In this document: piece after piece, positions 13,361-20,987 of the stretch | Layout of the letters: each line of letters begins with the position of its first letter | Position numbering within the stretch: position 1 is the first letter of the stretch | NCBI GenBank assembly: GCA_032252755.1 | Contig: JAVUPY010000094.1 | Coordinates: forward strand, 65,181 to 89,180 | Length of the DNA stretch: 24,000 bases | Origin: Terriglobia bacterium | GTDB taxonomy: Bacteria > Acidobacteriota > Terriglobia > Terriglobales > Acidobacteriaceae | Direction of reading: 5' to 3' | The notes under the pieces: generated by a model | Database searches by the model: none | Told to the model about the DNA's origin: nothing | The model's input: only the letters and a program-made list of their open reading frames with translations | Translations under genes and position numbers: made by a program

Positions 13361-13398
13361 GCCCCATTCTGGCTTTTATGGCCAGGGTGGGGCTTTTC
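13361..13398 (+). terminator. Rho-independent terminator of rpmE
   Basis: 13-bp stem GCCCCAUUCUGGC (13361-13373) / GCCAGGGUGGGGC (13381-13393), including two G-U pairs. 7-nt loop, then UUUUC. Confidence 0.75.
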
Positions 13399-13894
13399 AC
13401 GATTCGAGAACACGCGTTCGAATCTTTCCAACCCTCATCTATTCTTGTCTGGCCTCTTCAGGCACATTGGGAATTGAGAACTGATGGGGCCGTTGTCTTT
13501 GTCCAATCCCTGCCCAATCCCGGGACTGTCTTGAGCGGGCGCTCCGCAATCCAGTTGCAAGCGACATATCGCGCCTCGAAGCGGATTCGTGACTTGCGTC
13601 ACGGCAACAACCCCAACTTCGCTGCAAACTTTCCAACATCAGGGGAGCGTTTCCAATTGTTGCCAGCCAGGTTCAAGGATCGGGAGCGAAATTACGGTGA
13701 GGCCGACAATGAAACAGCAACATTCAGTAAGAGCATTGCCAACTCACAAGCTTCTGATGACTTACATGTGAGTGAAATCGCTTCGCAAGAACGGTGCCGC
13801 CGTAGAAGCCATTCCTCAGCGAGGCCACAGCAATCTCCGGCAGAGAGCGTGCCTAATTCCGTCACCACGCCAGTATTGATTTGGAGGACACGAT

Positions 13895-14302
13895 ATGCCG
13901 CAGCGATGCGAAGACGCTTTTAGCAGTATCGAGGGTGCGCAGGAGTTTCTTGCACTGTTAGCGGAAGCAATTGCAGAAACCAGGCGCGATGTCGATGCGG
14001 ACATTCAGGATCATGGAACCAACGGTTCAAGAAGAATCGATGTCCTGAAGATCGCTTCGTATGACCTGGAAGCTTTGGAACATCATATCTACCGCAGTAA
14101 GAGGCTCTTGAATGACCTCCGTATGGTCCGACGATTGCTCATGCAGGAACGGGGAGTCGCCGGTACTGAACTGCCTGACCCACCAGCCCCGATTCCGCTG
14201 GTTCGTATGGAACTGCCCATTCCACGGCCGCACGTGTTGGAGAAACGCCGAGCCCGACCGAGCGTGGGCGGACGAGAAAAGTCAGTTGCAGTTGCCAGTT
14301 AA
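13895..14302 (+). CDS. hypothetical helical protein (135 aa)
   Basis: ATG preceded by GGAGGA 7 nt upstream. The N-terminal half is predicted helical and the C-terminus is Pro/Arg-rich. No family recognised. Confidence 0.5.
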   Translation: MPQRCEDAFSSIEGAQEFLALLAEAIAETRRDVDADIQDHGTNGSRRIDVLKIASYDLEALEHHIYRSKRLLNDLRMVRRLLMQERGVAGTELPDPPAPIPLVRMELPIPRPHVLEKRRARPSVGGREKSVAVAS

Positions 14303-15075
14303 GTGTTTTGCTGAGCTTTGGCGAGACGATCGCCTATCACCCCATATACGGACGCGTTGAACGCAAGACCGATATGTGTACCGGGGACCTCGACATCGAT
14401 CTTGGGATCGCCGGTCACACAGCACTTCCAGTCCACCACCCCGTCATCCCGCGTATAGATCGCTGTCTGGCGCACCGACTTTGACAGGCGCGTGCGCAGT
14501 GAGCACACGAAATCGCACGTACACCTTGACGTGTAGCAGTCGGGAAGAACCGCCGTTCCATACTCTTCCAGGATTTGGCTCCGCACAAATCCGGCAGCGC
14601 GCAGGATCGAATGGTGGGCGACAGTGCCCCTGAAAGGAGAGGCAATGGTTGTCACAGAAGCTATGTCGCGGGGCCGTTGGCGAGCGACCGAACGCGCCAT
14701 GATGCCTCCCAGGCTGTGCCCCACAAGGTGAACCTTGCCGTGGGTTTCCTTCAAAGCCTTGTCGATCGTTGCCCACAGCTTGTACTTGATCAACAGGTTG
14801 GGGCACTCGGCATTCAGCCCGATCCCCGATAGATAGGACCTGTAACCAATGCGTGTGAGCCAGCCGTTCAGGTGCTGGAGGTATTCGTCAGTTCCCAAAA
14901 ACCCTGGTATGACGACGACCCCCGAGCCGTCACCCCGTGGAACTCCAAACCCGTAATAGGTCGGGGAGGCATGGAGCAGAAGGAGTTCAGCTCCAAAAAA
15001 AGCTTCTTTCCAGATGGAAATATTCGCAGGACCCGACTCCCGGATACTGACAGTCTGCGTTCGACTATGGGCCAT
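14299..15075 (-). CDS. alpha/beta-fold hydrolase (lipase/esterase-like), paralogue 1
   Basis: Nucleophile elbow GHSLGG, oxyanion-type VVVIPGFLG, candidate Asp in YTRDDGVVDW and His in PGTHIGLAFN. About 45-50% identical by eye to the 16797-17579 product. Confidence 0.85.
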   Translation of the reverse strand: MAHSRTQTVSIRESGPANISIWKEAFFGAELLLLHASPTYYGFGVPRGDGSGVVVIPGFLGTDEYLQHLNGWLTRIGYRSYLSGIGLNAECPNLLIKYKLWATIDKALKETHGKVHLVGHSLGGIMARSVARQRPRDIASVTTIASPFRGTVAHHSILRAAGFVRSQILEEYGTAVLPDCYTSRCTCDFVCSLRTRLSKSVRQTAIYTRDDGVVDWKCCVTGDPKIDVEVPGTHIGLAFNASVYGVIGDRLAKAQQNT

Positions 15076-15174: not shown

Positions 15175-15206
15175 AAGAAAAATGCCGCGGACTTAACATC
15201 CGCGGC
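15175..15206 (-). terminator. Rho-independent terminator after the phasin-like gene
   Basis: Minus strand reads GCCGCGGA-UGUUAAG-UCCGCGGC followed by AUUUUUCUU. It starts 28 nt after the stop codon. Confidence 0.65.
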
Positions 15207-15233: not shown

Positions 15234-16154
15234 TCAGGCGGTCGCGGCCATTGACCTTGCTCGGCGTGGTTTTCGCCGGCCCACCTTCGCGCGATGAACT
15301 TCGACGACCTTCCCTCGGGGTTGCTTTGCTTTCATCATCGAATCGATAAGTGCCTTCTCGGCGTCGACGAAGCTCTTTACGCCTTCGCCTGTAAGCTTTG
15401 CGATCGGCAGGCGCATCGGTATAGCAACCTCAGTCGCATTCTTTGCTACTTTGAGGTTCGTCTTCATCTGCTGCGCGGCAACGTCGAGCAGCTTCTTTTG
15501 CGCCTCAACCAGCGTGTTTACAGATTCGCGTGCCAAGGTGCTGATTTCTGTCCTGGCAGCCGGTTTCATCGTGCGCTCACCCTTGCTTGATGCCTTCGTG
15601 GTTTCTTCTGAGATGACGTCGAGCAGCTTCTTCTGTGTGCGGACAAAGTTCTCCATGCCTTCGCGAGCCAACTCAATCAAACGACCACCGTCGTAACGTT
15701 TTCCGTTCTTGGCATCATTCAGGAATCCCTGCGTCTGCTTGCTGGCGATCGTAAGGAACTCCTGCTGCATGGTCACGAAGTTTTCGGTGCTGCGACGGAC
15801 CACGTCCACCATGGCAACGGCCGCGCGTGAATTATGGACCCGCTCCCTGACGCCGTTCATGAACAGTTCGTTCTCTTTATCGGCGAGGTCGAGCAGGACT
15901 CTCTGCGCCTCGACGAAGTTTGCCGTCCCTTCCACTGCAAGCTCATTCAATATTGCGTTCGGCGAGTGCTCCGGATGAGATATGCTCTCGCGCATTGCCT
16001 TCATCGTGCTGGCGTTCTGCCGCATTGCTACATCGATCAGGATCCGCTGGGTTGCGAAGAAACTCTCCATCGCCTGCTGTACCCAGCCCGATAACAGAGA
16101 TACAAAAGACGAGGGTCGCGGCTCCACCCCTTCCCGTTTCACTTCCGCTTTCAT
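15234..16154 (-). CDS. phasin-like granule/lipid-body structural protein made of six ~45-aa amphipathic repeats, with basic C-terminal tail
   Basis: Strong RBS GAGGAGG 5 nt before the ATG. The six repeats have cores ESFFATQRILIDVA, ANFVEAQRVLLDLA, ENFVTMQQEFLTIA, ENFVRTQKKLLDVI, NTLVEAQKKLLDVA and KSFVDAEKALIDSM. Each resembles the phasin motif A-x-EG-x-E-x-hh-E-x-x-x-x-hh. The gene is divergent from phaR. Confidence 0.7.
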   Translation of the reverse strand: MKAEVKREGVEPRPSSFVSLLSGWVQQAMESFFATQRILIDVAMRQNASTMKAMRESISHPEHSPNAILNELAVEGTANFVEAQRVLLDLADKENELFMNGVRERVHNSRAAVAMVDVVRRSTENFVTMQQEFLTIASKQTQGFLNDAKNGKRYDGGRLIELAREGMENFVRTQKKLLDVISEETTKASSKGERTMKPAARTEISTLARESVNTLVEAQKKLLDVAAQQMKTNLKVAKNATEVAIPMRLPIAKLTGEGVKSFVDAEKALIDSMMKAKQPRGKVVEVHRAKVGRRKPRRARSMAATA

Positions 16155-16172: not shown

Positions 16173-16187
16173 TGCTGCACCGCAGCA
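16173..16187. promoter_or_regulatory. candidate PhaR operator: perfect palindrome TGCTGC-acc-GCAGCA
   Basis: 15-bp perfect inverted repeat containing CTGC-N3-GCAG. It lies between the predicted -10 and the RBS of the phasin-like gene. Confidence 0.6.
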
Positions 16188-16196
16188 ATCAAGAAA

Positions 16197-16226
16197 AGCA
16201 TAGGCTTGATCAGAGTGATATGTCAA
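16197..16226 (-). promoter_or_regulatory. sigma70-type promoter of the phasin-like gene (TTGACA-N18-TATGCT)
   Basis: On the minus strand, TTGACA is at 16226-16221 and TATGCT at 16202-16197, with an 18-nt spacer. Confidence 0.5.
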
Positions 16227-16236
16227 CATAGGTAAG

Positions 16237-16253
16237 CGCAATATTGCGTCGCA
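16237..16253. promoter_or_regulatory. second candidate PhaR site in front of phaR: CGCAAT/ATTGCG palindrome overlapping TGC-gtc-GCA
   Basis: The 12-bp perfect palindrome CGCAATATTGCG (16237-16248) overlaps TGCgtcGCA (16245-16253). It sits just downstream of a weak TTGATC-N17-TAGGTA promoter candidate (16206-16234) and 20 nt before the phaR ATG. Confidence 0.4.
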
Positions 16254-16273: not shown

Positions 16274-16807
16274 ATGTCAGCTCCACATATCATCAAGAAA
16301 TACGAAAACCGCCGGCTTTATGACACGTCGCGAAGTCGCTACGTGAACTTGGAGGAAATCGCCACCCTCATTCGCAAGGGCTACGAGGTCCGTGTGGTGG
16401 ACGCAAAAACCGGGGAAGACCTGACCCGTCCTACCCTGATGCAGATCATTGTCGAGGACAACAAAGAGGGATCGGCCGGACTCCCACTGGAACTGATGCG
16501 CCAGCTGATCGTCGCATCCGATCAGGTTGGACGGGATTTCCTGTCGTGGTATCTCAAGTCGGCCTTTGACGCCTACGGAAAAGTACAGCAGTCGTTCCGT
16601 AGCGGCCTCTCTGATCTGCAGGCGGCGGCGACATCCCCTATCGACTCCATCCGCCAGTTGCTCCGTATGCCGCAGGACGCAAAAGACGACAAAGGTGAAG
16701 TTTCTGAACTGAAGAAGAGGCTGGAGGAATTAGAGGCCCGCCTCCAAAAGCGAGCGCGACCTCGGTCAACCGGCGAGCGCACGAAGAAACGTAAAGCTAA
16801 GCGATAG
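16274..16807 (+). CDS. phaR: PhaR-family repressor (polyhydroxyalkanoate synthesis regulator type)
   Basis: IIKKYENRRLYDTSRSRYVNLEEIATLIRKGYEVRVVDAKTGEDLTRPTLMQIIVE closely matches the hallmark PhaR N-domain (IKKYPNRRLYDT..S.Y.TL.D...L......F.V.DAK.G.DLTR..LLQII.E). ATG at 16274 with GGGGAG upstream. Confidence 0.9.
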   Translation: MSAPHIIKKYENRRLYDTSRSRYVNLEEIATLIRKGYEVRVVDAKTGEDLTRPTLMQIIVEDNKEGSAGLPLELMRQLIVASDQVGRDFLSWYLKSAFDAYGKVQQSFRSGLSDLQAAATSPIDSIRQLLRMPQDAKDDKGEVSELKKRLEELEARLQKRARPRSTGERTKKRKAKR

Positions 16808-17579
16808 CGCTCCTTTCGCGTCGTCCAGTAGAAGCGCTGGCGAGTCGTTCTGCGATAACACGGTAAACCGCCGGGTTGAACGCCAAGCCGCTGTGGGTTC
16901 CGGAAACCTCGACATCCACGCTTGGGTCTCCGGTTCTGCAACTCGTCCATTCCACCAGGCCGTCATCTCGAGTGTAGACAGCAGTCAGCGGTAGTTTCGA
17001 TGGAAATGGCTGACGCAATGACTTCATGAATGCGCAGGGGCATTCCGCGGTGAGGCATTGTGGCCTCACACGCTCGGCCCGGTTGGCAATCAGGTACTTC
17101 CGGACAACTTCCGCGCTCTGAAAAATCCTTTTGCGAACGACTGTTTGCCGGACGGGAGATCCCAGCGTGATAACCGAAGCTATATCGTTTCGCTGCGTTG
17201 CGATCGAACGCGCGATCGCCCCGCCAAGACTGTGCCCGATCAGGTGGACTTTTCGCCCAGTCACTCTGGCAGCATCGGTAATGACCGGTTCCACGATCTC
17301 TGAAATCAGGAGATTGGGGCAGCTCGCATTGAAGCCGATTCCGGAATACGTCGGAGAATATCCCAACCGCTTCAGCCATGCATACATCACGATCAGGTAC
17401 GTATCGCCGTGTAGAAATCCGGGTATCAGGACAACTGCCGATCCGTCTCCTGGCGGCACCCCTGCTCCGTAATACACGGGTGAACCCAGCAACAGCACCA
17501 GTTCTACCGCATACAGCGATTCATGCCACTCCGGGTTGAGGGCTTCGCCGCGGTAACTATTCTCCTTCTTTTGCGACAT
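16797..17579 (-). CDS. alpha/beta-fold hydrolase (lipase/esterase-like), paralogue 2, last gene of the HMGR-WS/DGAT operon
   Basis: GHSLGG, VVLIPGFLHG, YTRDDGLVEW and SGTHSGLAFN. It starts 9 nt after the WS/DGAT stop. Its 3' end overlaps the phaR 3' end by 11 nt. Confidence 0.85.
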   Translation of the reverse strand: MSQKKENSYRGEALNPEWHESLYAVELVLLLGSPVYYGAGVPPGDGSAVVLIPGFLHGDTYLIVMYAWLKRLGYSPTYSGIGFNASCPNLLISEIVEPVITDAARVTGRKVHLIGHSLGGAIARSIATQRNDIASVITLGSPVRQTVVRKRIFQSAEVVRKYLIANRAERVRPQCLTAECPCAFMKSLRQPFPSKLPLTAVYTRDDGLVEWTSCRTGDPSVDVEVSGTHSGLAFNPAVYRVIAERLASASTGRRERSAIA

Positions 17580-17588
17580 AGTAATCTC

Positions 17589-19166
17589 TTATGCCGCTGT
17601 TGACGTCACTCCCGCGGCTGCAGCTCTTGCCATCGGCTTTGGCTTCGAGCCAATCCGATCGGTCTGCGCTTCGAGCGGAGTGGCCGCGACACGCCGAGAC
17701 TTTGTGTTGCGTGAGCGCTGCCTGCGGACTCCTGCTGCGCGGAGCAACTCCGCGACGCTCTCATCAACGAACTTCGGCAGCTTTTCCAGGTCCGGTGCGG
17801 CCTTTGCATCCCCGGTAAATCCGAAGTACACCATTCCGTTATACGAAAGCACTGCGCAGTTGATGCCCATCTCCCCGCCGATGGGAACATAGGGATAAGC
17901 CTTGAGCATTTCATGTCCGAGCAGATAAAGCGGCTGTCTCGGTCCGGGCACATTGGTACAAATCGTATTGCAGACACTGATGGGTAGCTCACTGATGATG
18001 GGCGCGAGCATAGCCTGCAGGACGGTCGGAATCGTACCGAGGAGCGTACCGGCAAACGACACGAACTCAGCTATGCGCGCTGTCTTTACGAATTCCATCC
18101 GCTGATGAATGGCGCTGAGCAGTTTCTTGGGAGTACGAATTCCCAGTGGAGCGGAAAATGGCGCGAATGTAATGTGATTTCCTAATCCGTCCGACTGATG
18201 TCTGCGCGTGCTCATCGGCACGACGATACGAATAGAGCGGCCGCGTGGATTCACCCCATGCAATTCGCTGTAACGCCGGAATGCCGCGGTGAGGACAGTG
18301 AGGATGGCATCGTTGACCGAGGCGCCGCACTTGCTGCGCAAAGCCTTTAAATATTCCAAACGAGTCTCGGTCCATTCGAAGCGCTGGGGCCCACGGCAGA
18401 GTACGTTGAAGGGCAACCGCTGAGGCACTTCCGCCAATTCGGCCGCAACGCGCACGATCTGGTCTTGCCCGGGCTTGCGTAAGTTGTTCGCAGCCTCAGC
18501 TTCGGCGGCGCCATTCTCTGAGATCCCCATGGCGCGCTGGAACATCGTGAGTACTCCGCTCCCGGCCTGCAGCAACCGCTCCAACGTCGAGAACCAGGAC
18601 TGGATTGCGGAATTGACCGTATCCGTCCCATTGCCGTTAACGGCAGGGCGGGGCACACGAACTTTAGGGCGCGTAAAAACCGGTGCCGTTGGAGATGTAT
18701 CCATCAAAACGTTGATCAGTCCCATGCCTGAAATGCCATCAGCCAGGCAGTGGTGTACACGTGCGATCATTGCCGTGCGGTTACCCTTAAGGCCGCGGAT
18801 CAGGGTCAGGTCCCATAACGGATGCTTTCGGTCCATATTGGGGCTGAGCACATTCGCCGTAACGTCTTTGAGTTCCGCAACCGTCCCACGCCTCAGCCGA
18901 ATCTCGTGGATGTGCCGCTCCAACCGGAAGTCAGTCGCAAACTCCCAATATGGCATGCCTACGTTCAGCGGCGGGACAACCACTCGTTGCATGTAGCGAG
19001 GGATCTGGCTGAGCTTCGAGGCGACCAGGTTGCGAAGATACGCGGCGGAGATTTCGCCGTCGAAAACTGCCAGCGAGGCAATATTAAGGGGAGCACCGTT
19101 GCGTTCGAGATAAAGAAACAGCGAGTCGCCAAACGATAAATATTCGCACTCGTGAGTCATGGGCAT
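17589..19166 (-). CDS. wax ester synthase / acyl-CoA:diacylglycerol acyltransferase (WS/DGAT family)
   Basis: Catalytic HHxxxDG motif present as ARVHHCLADGISG. The ~520-aa length and the N-terminal PLNIASLAVFDG plus C-terminal NxxxTNVPGP (ICTNVPGPRQPLYL) are typical of the family. The start may be 19166 or 19160. Confidence 0.9.
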   Translation of the reverse strand: MPMTHECEYLSFGDSLFLYLERNGAPLNIASLAVFDGEISAAYLRNLVASKLSQIPRYMQRVVVPPLNVGMPYWEFATDFRLERHIHEIRLRRGTVAELKDVTANVLSPNMDRKHPLWDLTLIRGLKGNRTAMIARVHHCLADGISGMGLINVLMDTSPTAPVFTRPKVRVPRPAVNGNGTDTVNSAIQSWFSTLERLLQAGSGVLTMFQRAMGISENGAAEAEAANNLRKPGQDQIVRVAAELAEVPQRLPFNVLCRGPQRFEWTETRLEYLKALRSKCGASVNDAILTVLTAAFRRYSELHGVNPRGRSIRIVVPMSTRRHQSDGLGNHITFAPFSAPLGIRTPKKLLSAIHQRMEFVKTARIAEFVSFAGTLLGTIPTVLQAMLAPIISELPISVCNTICTNVPGPRQPLYLLGHEMLKAYPYVPIGGEMGINCAVLSYNGMVYFGFTGDAKAAPDLEKLPKFVDESVAELLRAAGVRRQRSRNTKSRRVAATPLEAQTDRIGSKPKPMARAAAAGVTSTAA

Positions 19167-19174
19167 GTACCCTC

Positions 19175-20368
19175 TTACCTTCGGTTGCGCCCGAGTCGTT
19201 CGTGGGAGGAAACCCAGTCACCGTGAAGGATGGCAGCGACCAGCGAAATCTCGCCGGCGAGCACGACCGCGGCACAGATTTCCGCAAATTTGTTTACCTT
19301 GCCGTCACCGTAGCAACCCATCATCTCCAAACACTGTCTCTGGGTCGCCAATCCCGTGCCGCCGCCGAATGTGCCGACGATCAGCGAGGGAAGCGTAATA
19401 GACCAGTAAAAATCACCGTTTTCGAGAGCCTGCGTATACGTGAGCGATGAGTGTGATTCCGCTATGTTGGCGACGTCCTGGCCGGTCGCAATGAAAAGCG
19501 CAGCCAGTCCGTTTGCGGCGTGCGCACCAGTGCTGGATGATCCGGCTAAAAAAGCGCCCGAGATCTGAACCTCGCGAATCTTGCAGATCTCTTCGGTCTC
19601 GATGTGGAGGTACCGCCTGAGCAACTGTCCAGGAATAACGGCTTCCGCTACCACTCGTTTGCCACGCGTAAGCAGCATATTCAAATGCGAGTGCTTTTTG
19701 TCGGTGTCTATGTTTCCGCTGAGATAGTAAGAGGTGCGGAATGGACAGTTATCGCGAATCCATTCACAGGCCGCCTGCGTCGCCTTGCCTGTCATATTCT
19801 GACCAGCCGCATCTCCAGTCGTGTAATTGAAGCGCAGGTAGCGTACAGGCCCAACCGCGAACTGCTCGATCCTGATCAGTTTCCCGACTCGAGTCGTCGC
19901 TTCTGCCTCACGCTTGATATGCTCATAGTGCTCTTCGACCCATCGCCCGAAAGATCTTGCCAGGCGCGCGTTTCCAAGCAGGAAGGCGGGCGCGCGCTGC
20001 ATCGCATCATCCACTACAGTCGTTCGGACACCCCCGGACTCGCTGAGCACCCGCATGCCGCGGTTGTAGCTTGAGACCACCGTGCCCTCGGTGGTCGCCA
20101 GGGGGATGAAGAACTCGCCTTCGGCATACTCACCGTGAATTTGAAGTGGCCCGGCTACTCCTATCGGCACTTGTGCTACACCAATGAAGTTTTCGATATT
20201 TCCAGGGAGAATTGCGGGATCGAAAGAGTAGTGCGCGAGGTGAGTGAGATCGACGCCAGTGCTTTCCAGGATGAATCCACGTCGCATCGCGGCCATTTCA
20301 TGTGTGTAATCGTTGACCCGGGAGCGCGGAATAGTGATCCTCGGTTCGTCTTGGAGATCGGTGGCCAT
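19175..20368 (-). CDS. HMG-CoA reductase homologue (class I-type catalytic domain, soluble, ~397 aa)
   Basis: NIENFIGVAQVPIGVAGPL, PLATTEGTVVSS, TGDAAGQNM (cf. DAMGxNM), GTFGGGT (cf. GTVGGGT), and a C-terminal SSHE catalytic-His region. I chose the ATG at 20368 (MATDLQ), which has GGAGGG 9 nt upstream. The stop lies 8 nt before the WS/DGAT start. Confidence 0.85.
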   Translation of the reverse strand: MATDLQDEPRITIPRSRVNDYTHEMAAMRRGFILESTGVDLTHLAHYSFDPAILPGNIENFIGVAQVPIGVAGPLQIHGEYAEGEFFIPLATTEGTVVSSYNRGMRVLSESGGVRTTVVDDAMQRAPAFLLGNARLARSFGRWVEEHYEHIKREAEATTRVGKLIRIEQFAVGPVRYLRFNYTTGDAAGQNMTGKATQAACEWIRDNCPFRTSYYLSGNIDTDKKHSHLNMLLTRGKRVVAEAVIPGQLLRRYLHIETEEICKIREVQISGAFLAGSSSTGAHAANGLAALFIATGQDVANIAESHSSLTYTQALENGDFYWSITLPSLIVGTFGGGTGLATQRQCLEMMGCYGDGKVNKFAEICAAVVLAGEISLVAAILHGDWVSSHERLGRNRR

Positions 20369-20513
20369 TGGGGAACCCTCCGAAGATGTGGTTCGCAACA
20401 AATCCATCGGCCCAGAGCAGCCTGTGGAGTCGCATGCGGGCACACAAGCTCCAAGAGCAGGGCCTGCCGAGAACAGAAGACAATCCGGTAAAAGCGTAGT
20501 ACGTTTCACACGA

Positions 20514-20523
20514 TGCGAAGCAG
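20514..20523. promoter_or_regulatory. TGC-gaa-GCAG box (PhaR half-consensus) in the divergent region between the HMGR operon and the 138-aa gene
   Basis: aTGCgaaGCAGat. It is nested in local inverted repeats GCAGAT-N11-ATCTGC and CGTGA-N6-TCACG (minus-strand reading). Confidence 0.25.
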
Positions 20524-20570
20524 ATTTATTTGCGTGATCTGCGTCACGTTTCGCATTTTGGCGCGAGGCC

Positions 20571-20987
20571 ATGATGAAAAAACTTACACAGGTCGAACAG
20601 GCGCGTGCACTGATGGCCGAAGCTCTTGACTGGTCCGTCATGAGGTGGTTGAGCGAGAAGAAGCGAGTCCGGAAAGCCGCCGACCAAGCAAATGACTTGT
20701 TGAATGATGCCGAAGCGGAGATTCGCAAAAAGTGGAGTCCGGAATTCAGATCCATCTACGAAGAATCAGGATTCGCGTCTCCCGAAATGAAGCGCCTCGC
20801 CAGCAGAATTCGGCGCGAGCATGATGCCGCAACCCGGTTCAGAGTCGAGGCCGAAAAAACCTTCGATGCGGCAGAGAAGAGACTGAGCACGGCCATGGCC
20901 CGCGAAGGATGCCGGCAAGCCATCGAAGGGTGGGACCATCACCTCGAAGCCATTCGTCTGGCGGAAACCGCACTTGAAGCTGACTAG
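20571..20987 (+). CDS. hypothetical all-helical protein (138 aa)
   Basis: ATGATG start with GAGG just upstream. Charged, helix-prone sequence. Divergent from the HMGR operon. No family recognised. Confidence 0.5.
   Translation: MMKKLTQVEQARALMAEALDWSVMRWLSEKKRVRKAADQANDLLNDAEAEIRKKWSPEFRSIYEESGFASPEMKRLASRIRREHDAATRFRVEAEKTFDAAEKRLSTAMAREGCRQAIEGWDHHLEAIRLAETALEAD

Follow-up and report, generated by a model that had tools for sequence, protein, structure and literature searches.

A six-fold repeat protein encoded beside phaR and a wax-ester synthase gene in Terriglobia, a candidate phasin-like coat of neutral-lipid bodies

The stretch of DNA analysed here, called the window in what follows, comprises 24,000 nucleotides of the Terriglobia bacterium assembly GCA_032252755.1 (contig JAVUPY010000094.1, positions 65,181 to 89,180 of the forward strand). 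On its minus strand lies a gene for a 306-aa protein, here called REP6 (P0001), in which a unit of ~45 residues is repeated six times ahead of a polybasic tail. The gene is transcribed away from phaR, the regulator gene that adjoins phasin genes in makers of polyhydroxyalkanoate (PHA), and the two are accompanied by a gene for WS/DGAT (wax ester synthase/diacylglycerol acyltransferase), two genes for lipase-like hydrolases and one for a reductase homologue. From sequence, gene context and regulation we infer that REP6 is probably a phasin-like structural coat of wax-ester and/or triacylglycerol (TAG) bodies in a subset of Terriglobia. The initial annotation of the window had singled out 15330-16091, which corresponds to residues 22-275 of REP6, as a regular six-fold repeat. 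The gene is divided as follows, with the hidden Markov model (HMM) scores of each unit given as independent E-values (i-E) and the helices as predicted by AlphaFold2.

15234..16154, minus strand: REP6 coding sequence, from the open reading frame (ORF) list and its translation.
16011..16100, minus strand: unit 1 core (residues 19-48); unit-HMM i-E 2.8e-12, leave-one-out 1.6e-9; helix about 16-57.
15867..15950, minus strand: unit 2 core (residues 69-96); unit-HMM i-E 1.9e-10, leave-one-out 3.2e-9; helix about 65-105.
15729..15818, minus strand: unit 3 core (residues 113-142); unit-HMM i-E 7.3e-11, leave-one-out 3.2e-9; helix about 110-149.
15597..15686, minus strand: unit 4 core (residues 157-186); unit-HMM i-E 1.4e-13, leave-one-out 2.9e-13; helix about 157-190.
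15465..15551, minus strand: unit 5 core (residues 202-230); unit-HMM i-E 2.8e-12, leave-one-out 4.9e-13; helix about 198-243.
15330..15407, minus strand: unit 6 core (residues 250-275); unit-HMM i-E 5.6e-9, leave-one-out 4.7e-6; helix about 252-275.
15237..15329, minus strand: polybasic C-terminal tail, predicted disordered (residues 276-306); net charge ~+10 by charge count, predicted local distance difference test (pLDDT) below 50, without secondary structure.

The ~45-residue periodicity of REP6 is beyond chance. When the protein is matched against itself, the scores of its diagonals (ungapped BLOSUM62 segments) peak at lags of 44-48, 89-92, 135-138 and 182-183, with values of 42-61; the best score over all lags averages 32.1 (sd 5.1) in 200 shuffles, each peak lag is reached by 0-9 of these 200, and no lag apart from those of the ~45-residue series exceeds the mean of the shuffle maxima. 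The motif [L/I]xxLAxEGxxNFVxxQKxLLDxA, put forward as the core of the unit from inspection of the sequence, is found six times and agrees with AAALAELARQGVENFVEAQKILLDLAAKQTA, the consensus of a 31-residue unit HMM that detects six units in REP6 at an i-E of 6e-9 or better each. Leave-one-out models, built solely from other proteins with the tested unit position omitted and hence non-circular, also find all six units, at i-E values of 5e-6 to 3e-13. Conserved Gln/Glu anchors mark the register of the units (Q36, Q84, Q130, Q174, Q219 and E266; spacings 48, 46, 44, 45 and 47). The aromatic/aliphatic pairs listed in the initial annotation fall exactly where stated in units 2-6 (F80, F126, F170, L215 and F262), but the F33 given for unit 1 is off by one in register, the aligned pair there being F32-F33. 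The regular six-fold repeat thus withstands the self-diagonal, unit-HMM and leave-one-out tests alike, and it is conserved.

That conservation is seen across a large and nameless family. A word-indexed search returned more than 1500 homologues, nearly all of ~300-310 aa and all unnamed or 'hypothetical', and an exhaustive search of 1.84 billion representatives gave 354 clusters at E <= 0.001; the literature searched contains no publication on the family, nor any on acidobacterial phasins or proteins of lipid bodies. A search with the single REP6 protein yielded 80 related genomic loci, which belong to Terriglobia (Terriglobales, Ca. Sulfotelmatobacter, Ca. Korobacter and Bryobacteraceae) with the exception of one short contig binned as Anaerolineae (locus L074; JBGQIO010000358.1, 3.1 kb). 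This contig carries a REP6 copy of 53% identity, which points either to a binning error or to members of the family outside Acidobacteriota. Six units are present in 158 of the 270 proteins retrieved, the shorter ones being mostly fragments. Units at the same position are 36-47% identical between species, as against 20-31% between positions, so that the six-fold build must be old and fixed. By unit-to-unit profile scores the closest pairs are units 1 and 2 and units 4 and 5, a closeness that internal duplications of the REP6 sequence would tentatively fit. In about 20 loci there is also a second, five-unit paralogue of ~250 aa, which lacks unit 1 and retains a basic tail.

Each unit corresponds to one amphipathic helix. 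AlphaFold2 was run twice on REP6, with 45 and with 149 homologues, and both runs gave six long helices, one per unit, with short linkers between them and the last ~30 residues unstructured. The hydrophobic moment is maximal at 98-100 degrees per residue in all six helices, and it exceeds that of shuffles at p <= 0.015 for five of them (p ~0.1 for helix 2); the pattern recurs in every one of the six units when hydrophobicity is averaged by column over 149 members of the family. The helices that the initial annotation had expected are therefore found by both model and moment. As modelled, REP6 is an amphipathic, alpha-helical, non-enzymatic protein of small to medium size, which is the build of the phasin class. 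Foldseek comparison of the model with the Protein Data Bank (PDB) gave no match at E <= 0.001, only generic helices of BAR, SMC and chemoreceptor proteins at E > 0.1, and a sequence-profile search of PDB chains gave chance-level matches only (E > 0.3).

REP6 resembles phasin genes in its control region, which lies between the divergent REP6 and phaR genes and contains the following features, listed with phaR itself and the putative REP6 terminator.

16173..16187, no strand: PhaR box 1, holding the sole exact CTGCN3GCAG of the 24-kb window.
16245..16253, no strand: PhaR box 2 (TGCGTCGCA), phaR-proximal, the second TGCN3GCA.
16197..16226, minus strand: REP6 promoter-like site TTGACA-18-TATGCT; 10/12 matches in a consensus scan, a pattern match only.
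15184..15206, minus strand: intrinsic-terminator-like hairpin and T-run, directly 3' of the REP6 stop.
16274..16807, plus strand: phaR; PHB_acc_N E 8.8e-29, TIGR01848 105 bits (below the cut-off of 109); the sole PhaR in the genome.

Both boxes fit the core TGCRNYGCA, defined experimentally for PhaR in Sinorhizobium meliloti (PMC12542648) and R. eutropha (PMC12849132), and REP6 would thus adjoin phaR with PhaR-type operators at its promoter. This arrangement recurs: phaR and REP6 are divergent neighbours in 75 of the 80 related loci, the control regions that they share carry CTGC-N3-GCAG on the REP6 side without exception (75/75), and a second TGCN3GCA is present in 74 of them, mostly at 66-68 bp from box 1. 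Of 20 five-unit paralogues, 19 carry a PhaR box of their own. With a near-consensus promoter-like site, a GGAGG ribosome site and what reads as its own terminator, REP6 looks like a strongly expressed gene, and the position of the hairpin directly after the stop implies that it is monocistronic. The longest ORF would start phaR at TTG 16244, a start rejected for its overlap with box 2; GGGGAGAA precedes the ATG at 16274, which is more likely to be the start. In loci L036, L048, L049, L058, L061, L076 and L080 an in-frame ATG also lies ~30 nt before the start of REP6 or its paralogue, and the extension it opens, 'MLQCSN...', is a translated PhaR box (ATG CTG CAA TGC AGC AAT). Thus, some of the 311-318-aa ORFs called here are probably over-extended, as database entries of the same length possibly are.

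A helical protein could answer to PhaR and still have no part in storage, being stress- or chaperone-like or cytoskeletal, with its link to WS/DGAT (described below) a matter of shared regulation only. The PhaR regulon of S. meliloti does exceed the granule genes (PMC12542648), phasins themselves are reported to act in a chaperone-like way (PMC13256600), and the models of REP6 yield no confident fold. However, conservation of the amphipathic pattern is strict throughout the six units, phasin genes show the same operator position and divergent pairing, a homologue resides inside a PHA-synthase operon, and REP6 and WS/DGAT co-occur exactly. Taken together, these observations make a role outside storage decidedly unlikely.

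If REP6 is a storage protein, the question becomes which compound it serves, and here the neighbouring genes are informative.

14299..15075, minus strand: lipase-like alpha/beta hydrolase, paralogue 1 (GHSLGG); weak matches to Abhydrolase_1, PGAP1, LCAT and Lipase_3.
16797..17579, minus strand: lipase-like alpha/beta hydrolase, paralogue 2, by domain search.
17589..19166, minus strand: WS/DGAT (motif HHCLADG); TIGR02946 327.6 bits, above cut-off; sole copy in the genome.
19175..20755, minus strand: HMG-CoA-reductase homologue with a ~150-aa N-terminal extension; PF00368 covers residues 156-523 only.

By analogy, the last of these is probably a fatty acyl-CoA reductase of the FcrA type, a family that has an N-terminal domain and a gene adjoining WS/DGAT (PMC11948995). 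Upstream of the FcrA-like/WS-DGAT/hydrolase operon, TGCGAAGCA (20514-20522) keeps the TGC-N3-GCA frame with one departure from TGCRNYGCA and may be a weak third PhaR site. On the other side of the locus, the ORFs at 13378..13923 and 13895..14302 match nothing in Pfam or NCBIfam, and a relative of the second is present in only one of the 80 related loci.

The window's genome is 99.98% complete and possesses a single copy each of REP6, PhaR and WS/DGAT, and this locus contains all three. No PhaC_N, class I/II or class III PhaC was found in it, and no homologue of the PhaC of a Terriglobales genome (G084) that does carry a PHA locus. In an even set of 201 genomes of the class, full-length REP6 is encoded by seven, and WS/DGAT by exactly those seven; PhaR is found in the seven and in G084, and PhaC_N in G084 only. 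Five further REP6 genomes with no WS/DGAT within 8 kb all have one 9-30 kb away on the same contig, and the linkage extends to two other taxonomic families of the class. The WS/DGAT context from which the initial annotation had argued is therefore a strong link (7/7 and 5/5 genomes), and the association is exclusive. A lipase-like hydrolase adjoins the phaR/REP6 pair in ~71 of the 80 loci.

Against this background, REP6 might be considered an ordinary PHA-granule phasin whose synthase was missed by the searches. Its place beside phaR, with PhaR boxes, would suit such a protein, as would its homology to a four-unit protein of true PHA loci and its family's recurrent sub-threshold matches to Phasin_2 and TIGR01841 (both described below). 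Yet the nearly complete genome holds no PhaC of any kind searched for, PhaC_N is absent from all seven REP6 genomes of the class sample (the window's own included) and from the five further ones, though the same search detected the G084 PhaC, and the phyletic match with WS/DGAT is exact. The flanking hydrolases, tried as cryptic PHA synthases, were rejected, since they carry the nucleophile Ser (GHSLGG) in place of the synthase Cys and have lipase/esterase-type matches. With no PhaC in its own genome or in the 11 other REP6 genomes, REP6 is very unlikely to be a PHA phasin, and of the readings considered this is the least probable.

The tail sets REP6 apart from its PHA-linked relatives and raises a different possibility. 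The tail, KQPRGKVVEVHRAKVGRRKPRRARSMAATA, has a net charge of +10, as compared to +4 for the 276-residue body, and the Arg/Lys-rich end already remarked on in the initial annotation proves to be a family trait: 95% of the 158 six-unit members have a tail charge of at least +4, with a median of +8 over ~30 residues, conserved by composition and not by sequence. Basic ends are not confined to REP6. The C-terminus of PhaR (window 16658-16807) has a charge of +10 in its last 30 residues (KRARPRSTGERTKKRKAKR), and WS/DGAT (17589-17738) has a basic extension past its Pfam domains (RRQRSRNTKSRR), a hint that the three proteins might reach one surface by a common route. REP6 could accordingly be an adaptor or gatekeeper, with a tail that anchors lipid bodies, or else WS/DGAT and PhaR, to the nucleoid or the membrane, or with control over the access of hydrolases in the manner of perilipins. 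Conservation of the polybasic tail in WS/DGAT-linked forms only, the basic ends of its two partners, the nearly constant adjacency of lipase-like hydrolases and the precedents of MLDS and PhaF all speak for such a role. Conversely, the strong promoter-like site, ribosome site and terminator suit a surface protein made in abundance, as does the size of the amphipathic body, and the tail is without visible lysine-rich repeats of the AAKP/PAKKA type that PhaF and PhaM use to bind DNA. As an alternative to a coat, adaptor function appears unlikely, if less so than the two readings above, and it overlaps with and is compatible with a coat role.

A sister family encoded in PHA loci provides a link between REP6 and phasins. 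Its ~270 members are ~195 aa long, unannotated and without a Pfam model, and have four units. In G084 (L084:6416-9297, contig G084:C12), PhaR adjoins a 193-aa four-unit protein, followed by a PhaE-like protein and a 355-aa class-III-type PhaC; the same order of four-unit protein, PhaE-like protein (135-152 aa) and class-III-type PhaC is found in L084, L088, L090 and L092. The phaR gene lies divergently upstream of the four-unit gene in three of these four loci (L084 and two of three further metagenomic loci), and in L088 its position is occupied by a gene with MaoC-dehydratase and phosphate-acetyltransferase domains (PF01575, PF13452 and PF01515). Profile comparison of REP6 with the four-unit family by hhalign gave a probability of 98.9% and an E-value of 3.9e-17, and the unit spacing is nearly the same (48, 47 and 44, as against 48, 46 and 44 in REP6). 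Unit-to-unit profile scores suggest, tentatively, that the last of the four units corresponds to unit 6 of REP6. The two families thus share the repeat unit, its spacing and, in most loci, the divergent phaR, whereas the four-unit protein lacks the basic tail of the WS/DGAT-linked forms and is encoded by the first gene of a PhaE-like/PhaC operon, REP6 being monocistronic and WS/DGAT-linked. The earlier statement that one such unit is typical of phasins fails locally, where the PHA-synthase-linked family of the same order packs four into ~195 aa. Near these four PHA loci are genes for a MaoC dehydratase and a short-chain dehydrogenase/reductase (SDR), and a recurrent ~900-aa protein (L084:11265-13952, L088:1-2343 and L092:2126-4837) fuses a FabH-like ketosynthase III to a FabG/PhaB-like reductase and may constitute a one-protein route of monomer supply.

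Searches with curated families place REP6 close to, and outside, the described phasins. REP6 reaches no Pfam or NCBIfam threshold and matches no enzymatic domain. Against Phasin_2 (PF09361) it scores 13.6 bits (E 0.078, residues 14-56 only), below the gathering cut-off of 24.9, and against TIGR01841 it has no match. Weak Phasin_2 matches that cover about two repeat units are found in 20 of 45 family members (best E 3.8e-5) and in 16 of 20 four-unit relatives, weak TIGR01841 matches in 8 of 45 (best E 3e-5), and sub-threshold PHA_synth_III_E matches in 9 of 45. A six-frame search of the window's genome gave no Phasin_2 match, and canonical Phasin_2 above cut-off occurs in 1 of 151 Acidobacteriota genomes. 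The description 'phasin-like' is therefore apt for position and regulation, but does not extend to sequence membership: REP6 is phasin-type by gene position, regulation and build, and membership of Phasin_2 is not established. The likeness to apolipoproteins and perilipins, also proposed from the sequence, likewise stands as a functional analogy only. The lags of 11 and 22 expected of their 11-mer and 22-mer repeats are not among the 16 best self-match lags of REP6, and the fold comparison gave nothing significant. ApoB100_C (PF12491, cut-off 27 bits) does not match REP6 and matches 9 of 45 members in a scattered way, one of them (P0215, residues 29-65) at 31.5 bits over one unit and the others below cut-off, probably through convergence on a short amphipathic motif of the Q..LLDL type. 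Convergence is also the simplest account of the resemblance as a whole.

These findings can be assembled into a model of how REP6 might act. The hydrophobic faces of its six amphipathic helices would lie on the droplet surface, giving multivalent binding, and the ~30-residue polybasic tail would point outward and bind the anionic phospholipid layer or, as in PhaF, PhaM and MLDS, DNA or the nucleoid. By analogy with PHA granules, the appearance of hydrophobic bodies would titrate PhaR onto their surface and off its boxes, REP6 would then be made in bulk, and as it covered the surface it would displace PhaR and close the loop. REP6 and the four-unit, tail-less protein of PHA loci probably come from the same stock, and the REP6 family would have gained units (to five or six) and a tail. 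In its stronger form, the model makes REP6 a dedicated prokaryotic 'perilipin' of wax-ester/TAG bodies, descended from a PHA phasin of four units through duplication of units and addition of a polybasic tail, with a PhaR partner that senses neutral-lipid droplets and not polyester; we give this version about an even chance.

Several observations weigh against a coat of neutral-lipid bodies. The genomes that encode REP6 are related to one another, those of the class sample falling in about 5 genera, and the exact match with WS/DGAT therefore overstates independence. Confidence in the AlphaFold2 models is modest (pLDDT 65 with 45 homologues and 55 with 149; predicted TM-score, pTM, 0.46 and 0.40), and the packing and tertiary arrangement of the helices are consequently not fixed by them. 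No curated phasin model reaches threshold for REP6, and hhalign comparison of profiles A1 and A2 with 24 PF09361-annotated phasins of ~110 aa gave probabilities of 0.2% and 0.9%, a negative result that leaves remote homology to the broad Phasin_2 family possible because this comparison set is narrow (Neff ~2). As noted for S. meliloti, PhaR regulons elsewhere take in non-granule genes (PMC12542648). Neutral-lipid storage in Acidobacteriota has been called unexplored (PMC10351704), and the literature searched holds no report of lipid bodies in these mostly uncultured bacteria.

To our knowledge, only a handful of proteins with a structural role in bacterial neutral-lipid bodies have been described, namely TadA, MLDS and HBHA-like proteins, all of them from Actinobacteria. 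If REP6 is indeed a prokaryotic 'perilipin', the PhaR-phasin circuit would become a general sensor of hydrophobic inclusions, and Acidobacteria, a dominant soil phylum, would prove to have a regulated organelle for fat storage that has escaped recognition. Terriglobia abound in soil and peat, and the regulated wax-ester/TAG storage to which this locus points has consequences for the interpretation of bacterial neutral-lipid fatty acids in soil (bioRxiv 10.1101/2024.12.02.626346). Related bacteria offer a natural comparison: some carry the tail-less protein of four units next to a PHA synthase, others the tailed protein of five or six units next to a wax-ester synthase, and one and the same repressor governs both. 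What suits a coat protein to a polyester granule or to an oil droplet can thereby be tested directly, as can the question whether PhaR responds to hydrophobic surfaces of any kind. In biotechnology, the modular helix repeat could find use as a droplet-targeting tag.

Among the known systems close to that of REP6 is the PhaP-PhaR circuit of Cupriavidus necator (PhaP1/PhaR), S. meliloti (PhaP1/2 and AniA) and Paracoccus denitrificans. It shares with REP6 an amphipathic helical protein encoded next to phaR and palindromic TGCRNYGCA boxes at the promoter of that protein and before phaR, and the same titration logic would be expected of both. The REP6 module differs in having no PHA synthase and in its linkage to WS/DGAT, an FcrA-like reductase and lipase-like hydrolases, and REP6 differs from PhaP in its 306 aa, six regular units, polybasic tail and scores below the Phasin_2 and TIGR01841 thresholds. 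With respect to neutral lipid, a parallel is provided by MLDS of Rhodococcus jostii RHA1, the major coat of TAG droplets, which has a basic C-terminal region that binds DNA and a regulator, MLDSR, that binds palindromic boxes and is sequestered by droplets (PMC5504291). However, MLDSR is of the XRE type and unrelated to PhaR, and MLDS is a small protein whose gene, mlds, shares an operon with mldsr. PhaF of Pseudomonas putida and PhaM of C. necator combine N-terminal granule-binding helices with a positively charged C-terminus that binds DNA and positions granules (PMC5658603). Their tails consist of AAKP/PAKKA-type repeats, whereas that of REP6 is Arg-rich and non-repetitive; they act on PHA and not on neutral lipid, and they belong to other families (PF05597 for PhaF). 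In the exchangeable apolipoproteins and perilipins, finally, tandem amphipathic helices coat a core of neutral lipid, just as is proposed here for REP6.

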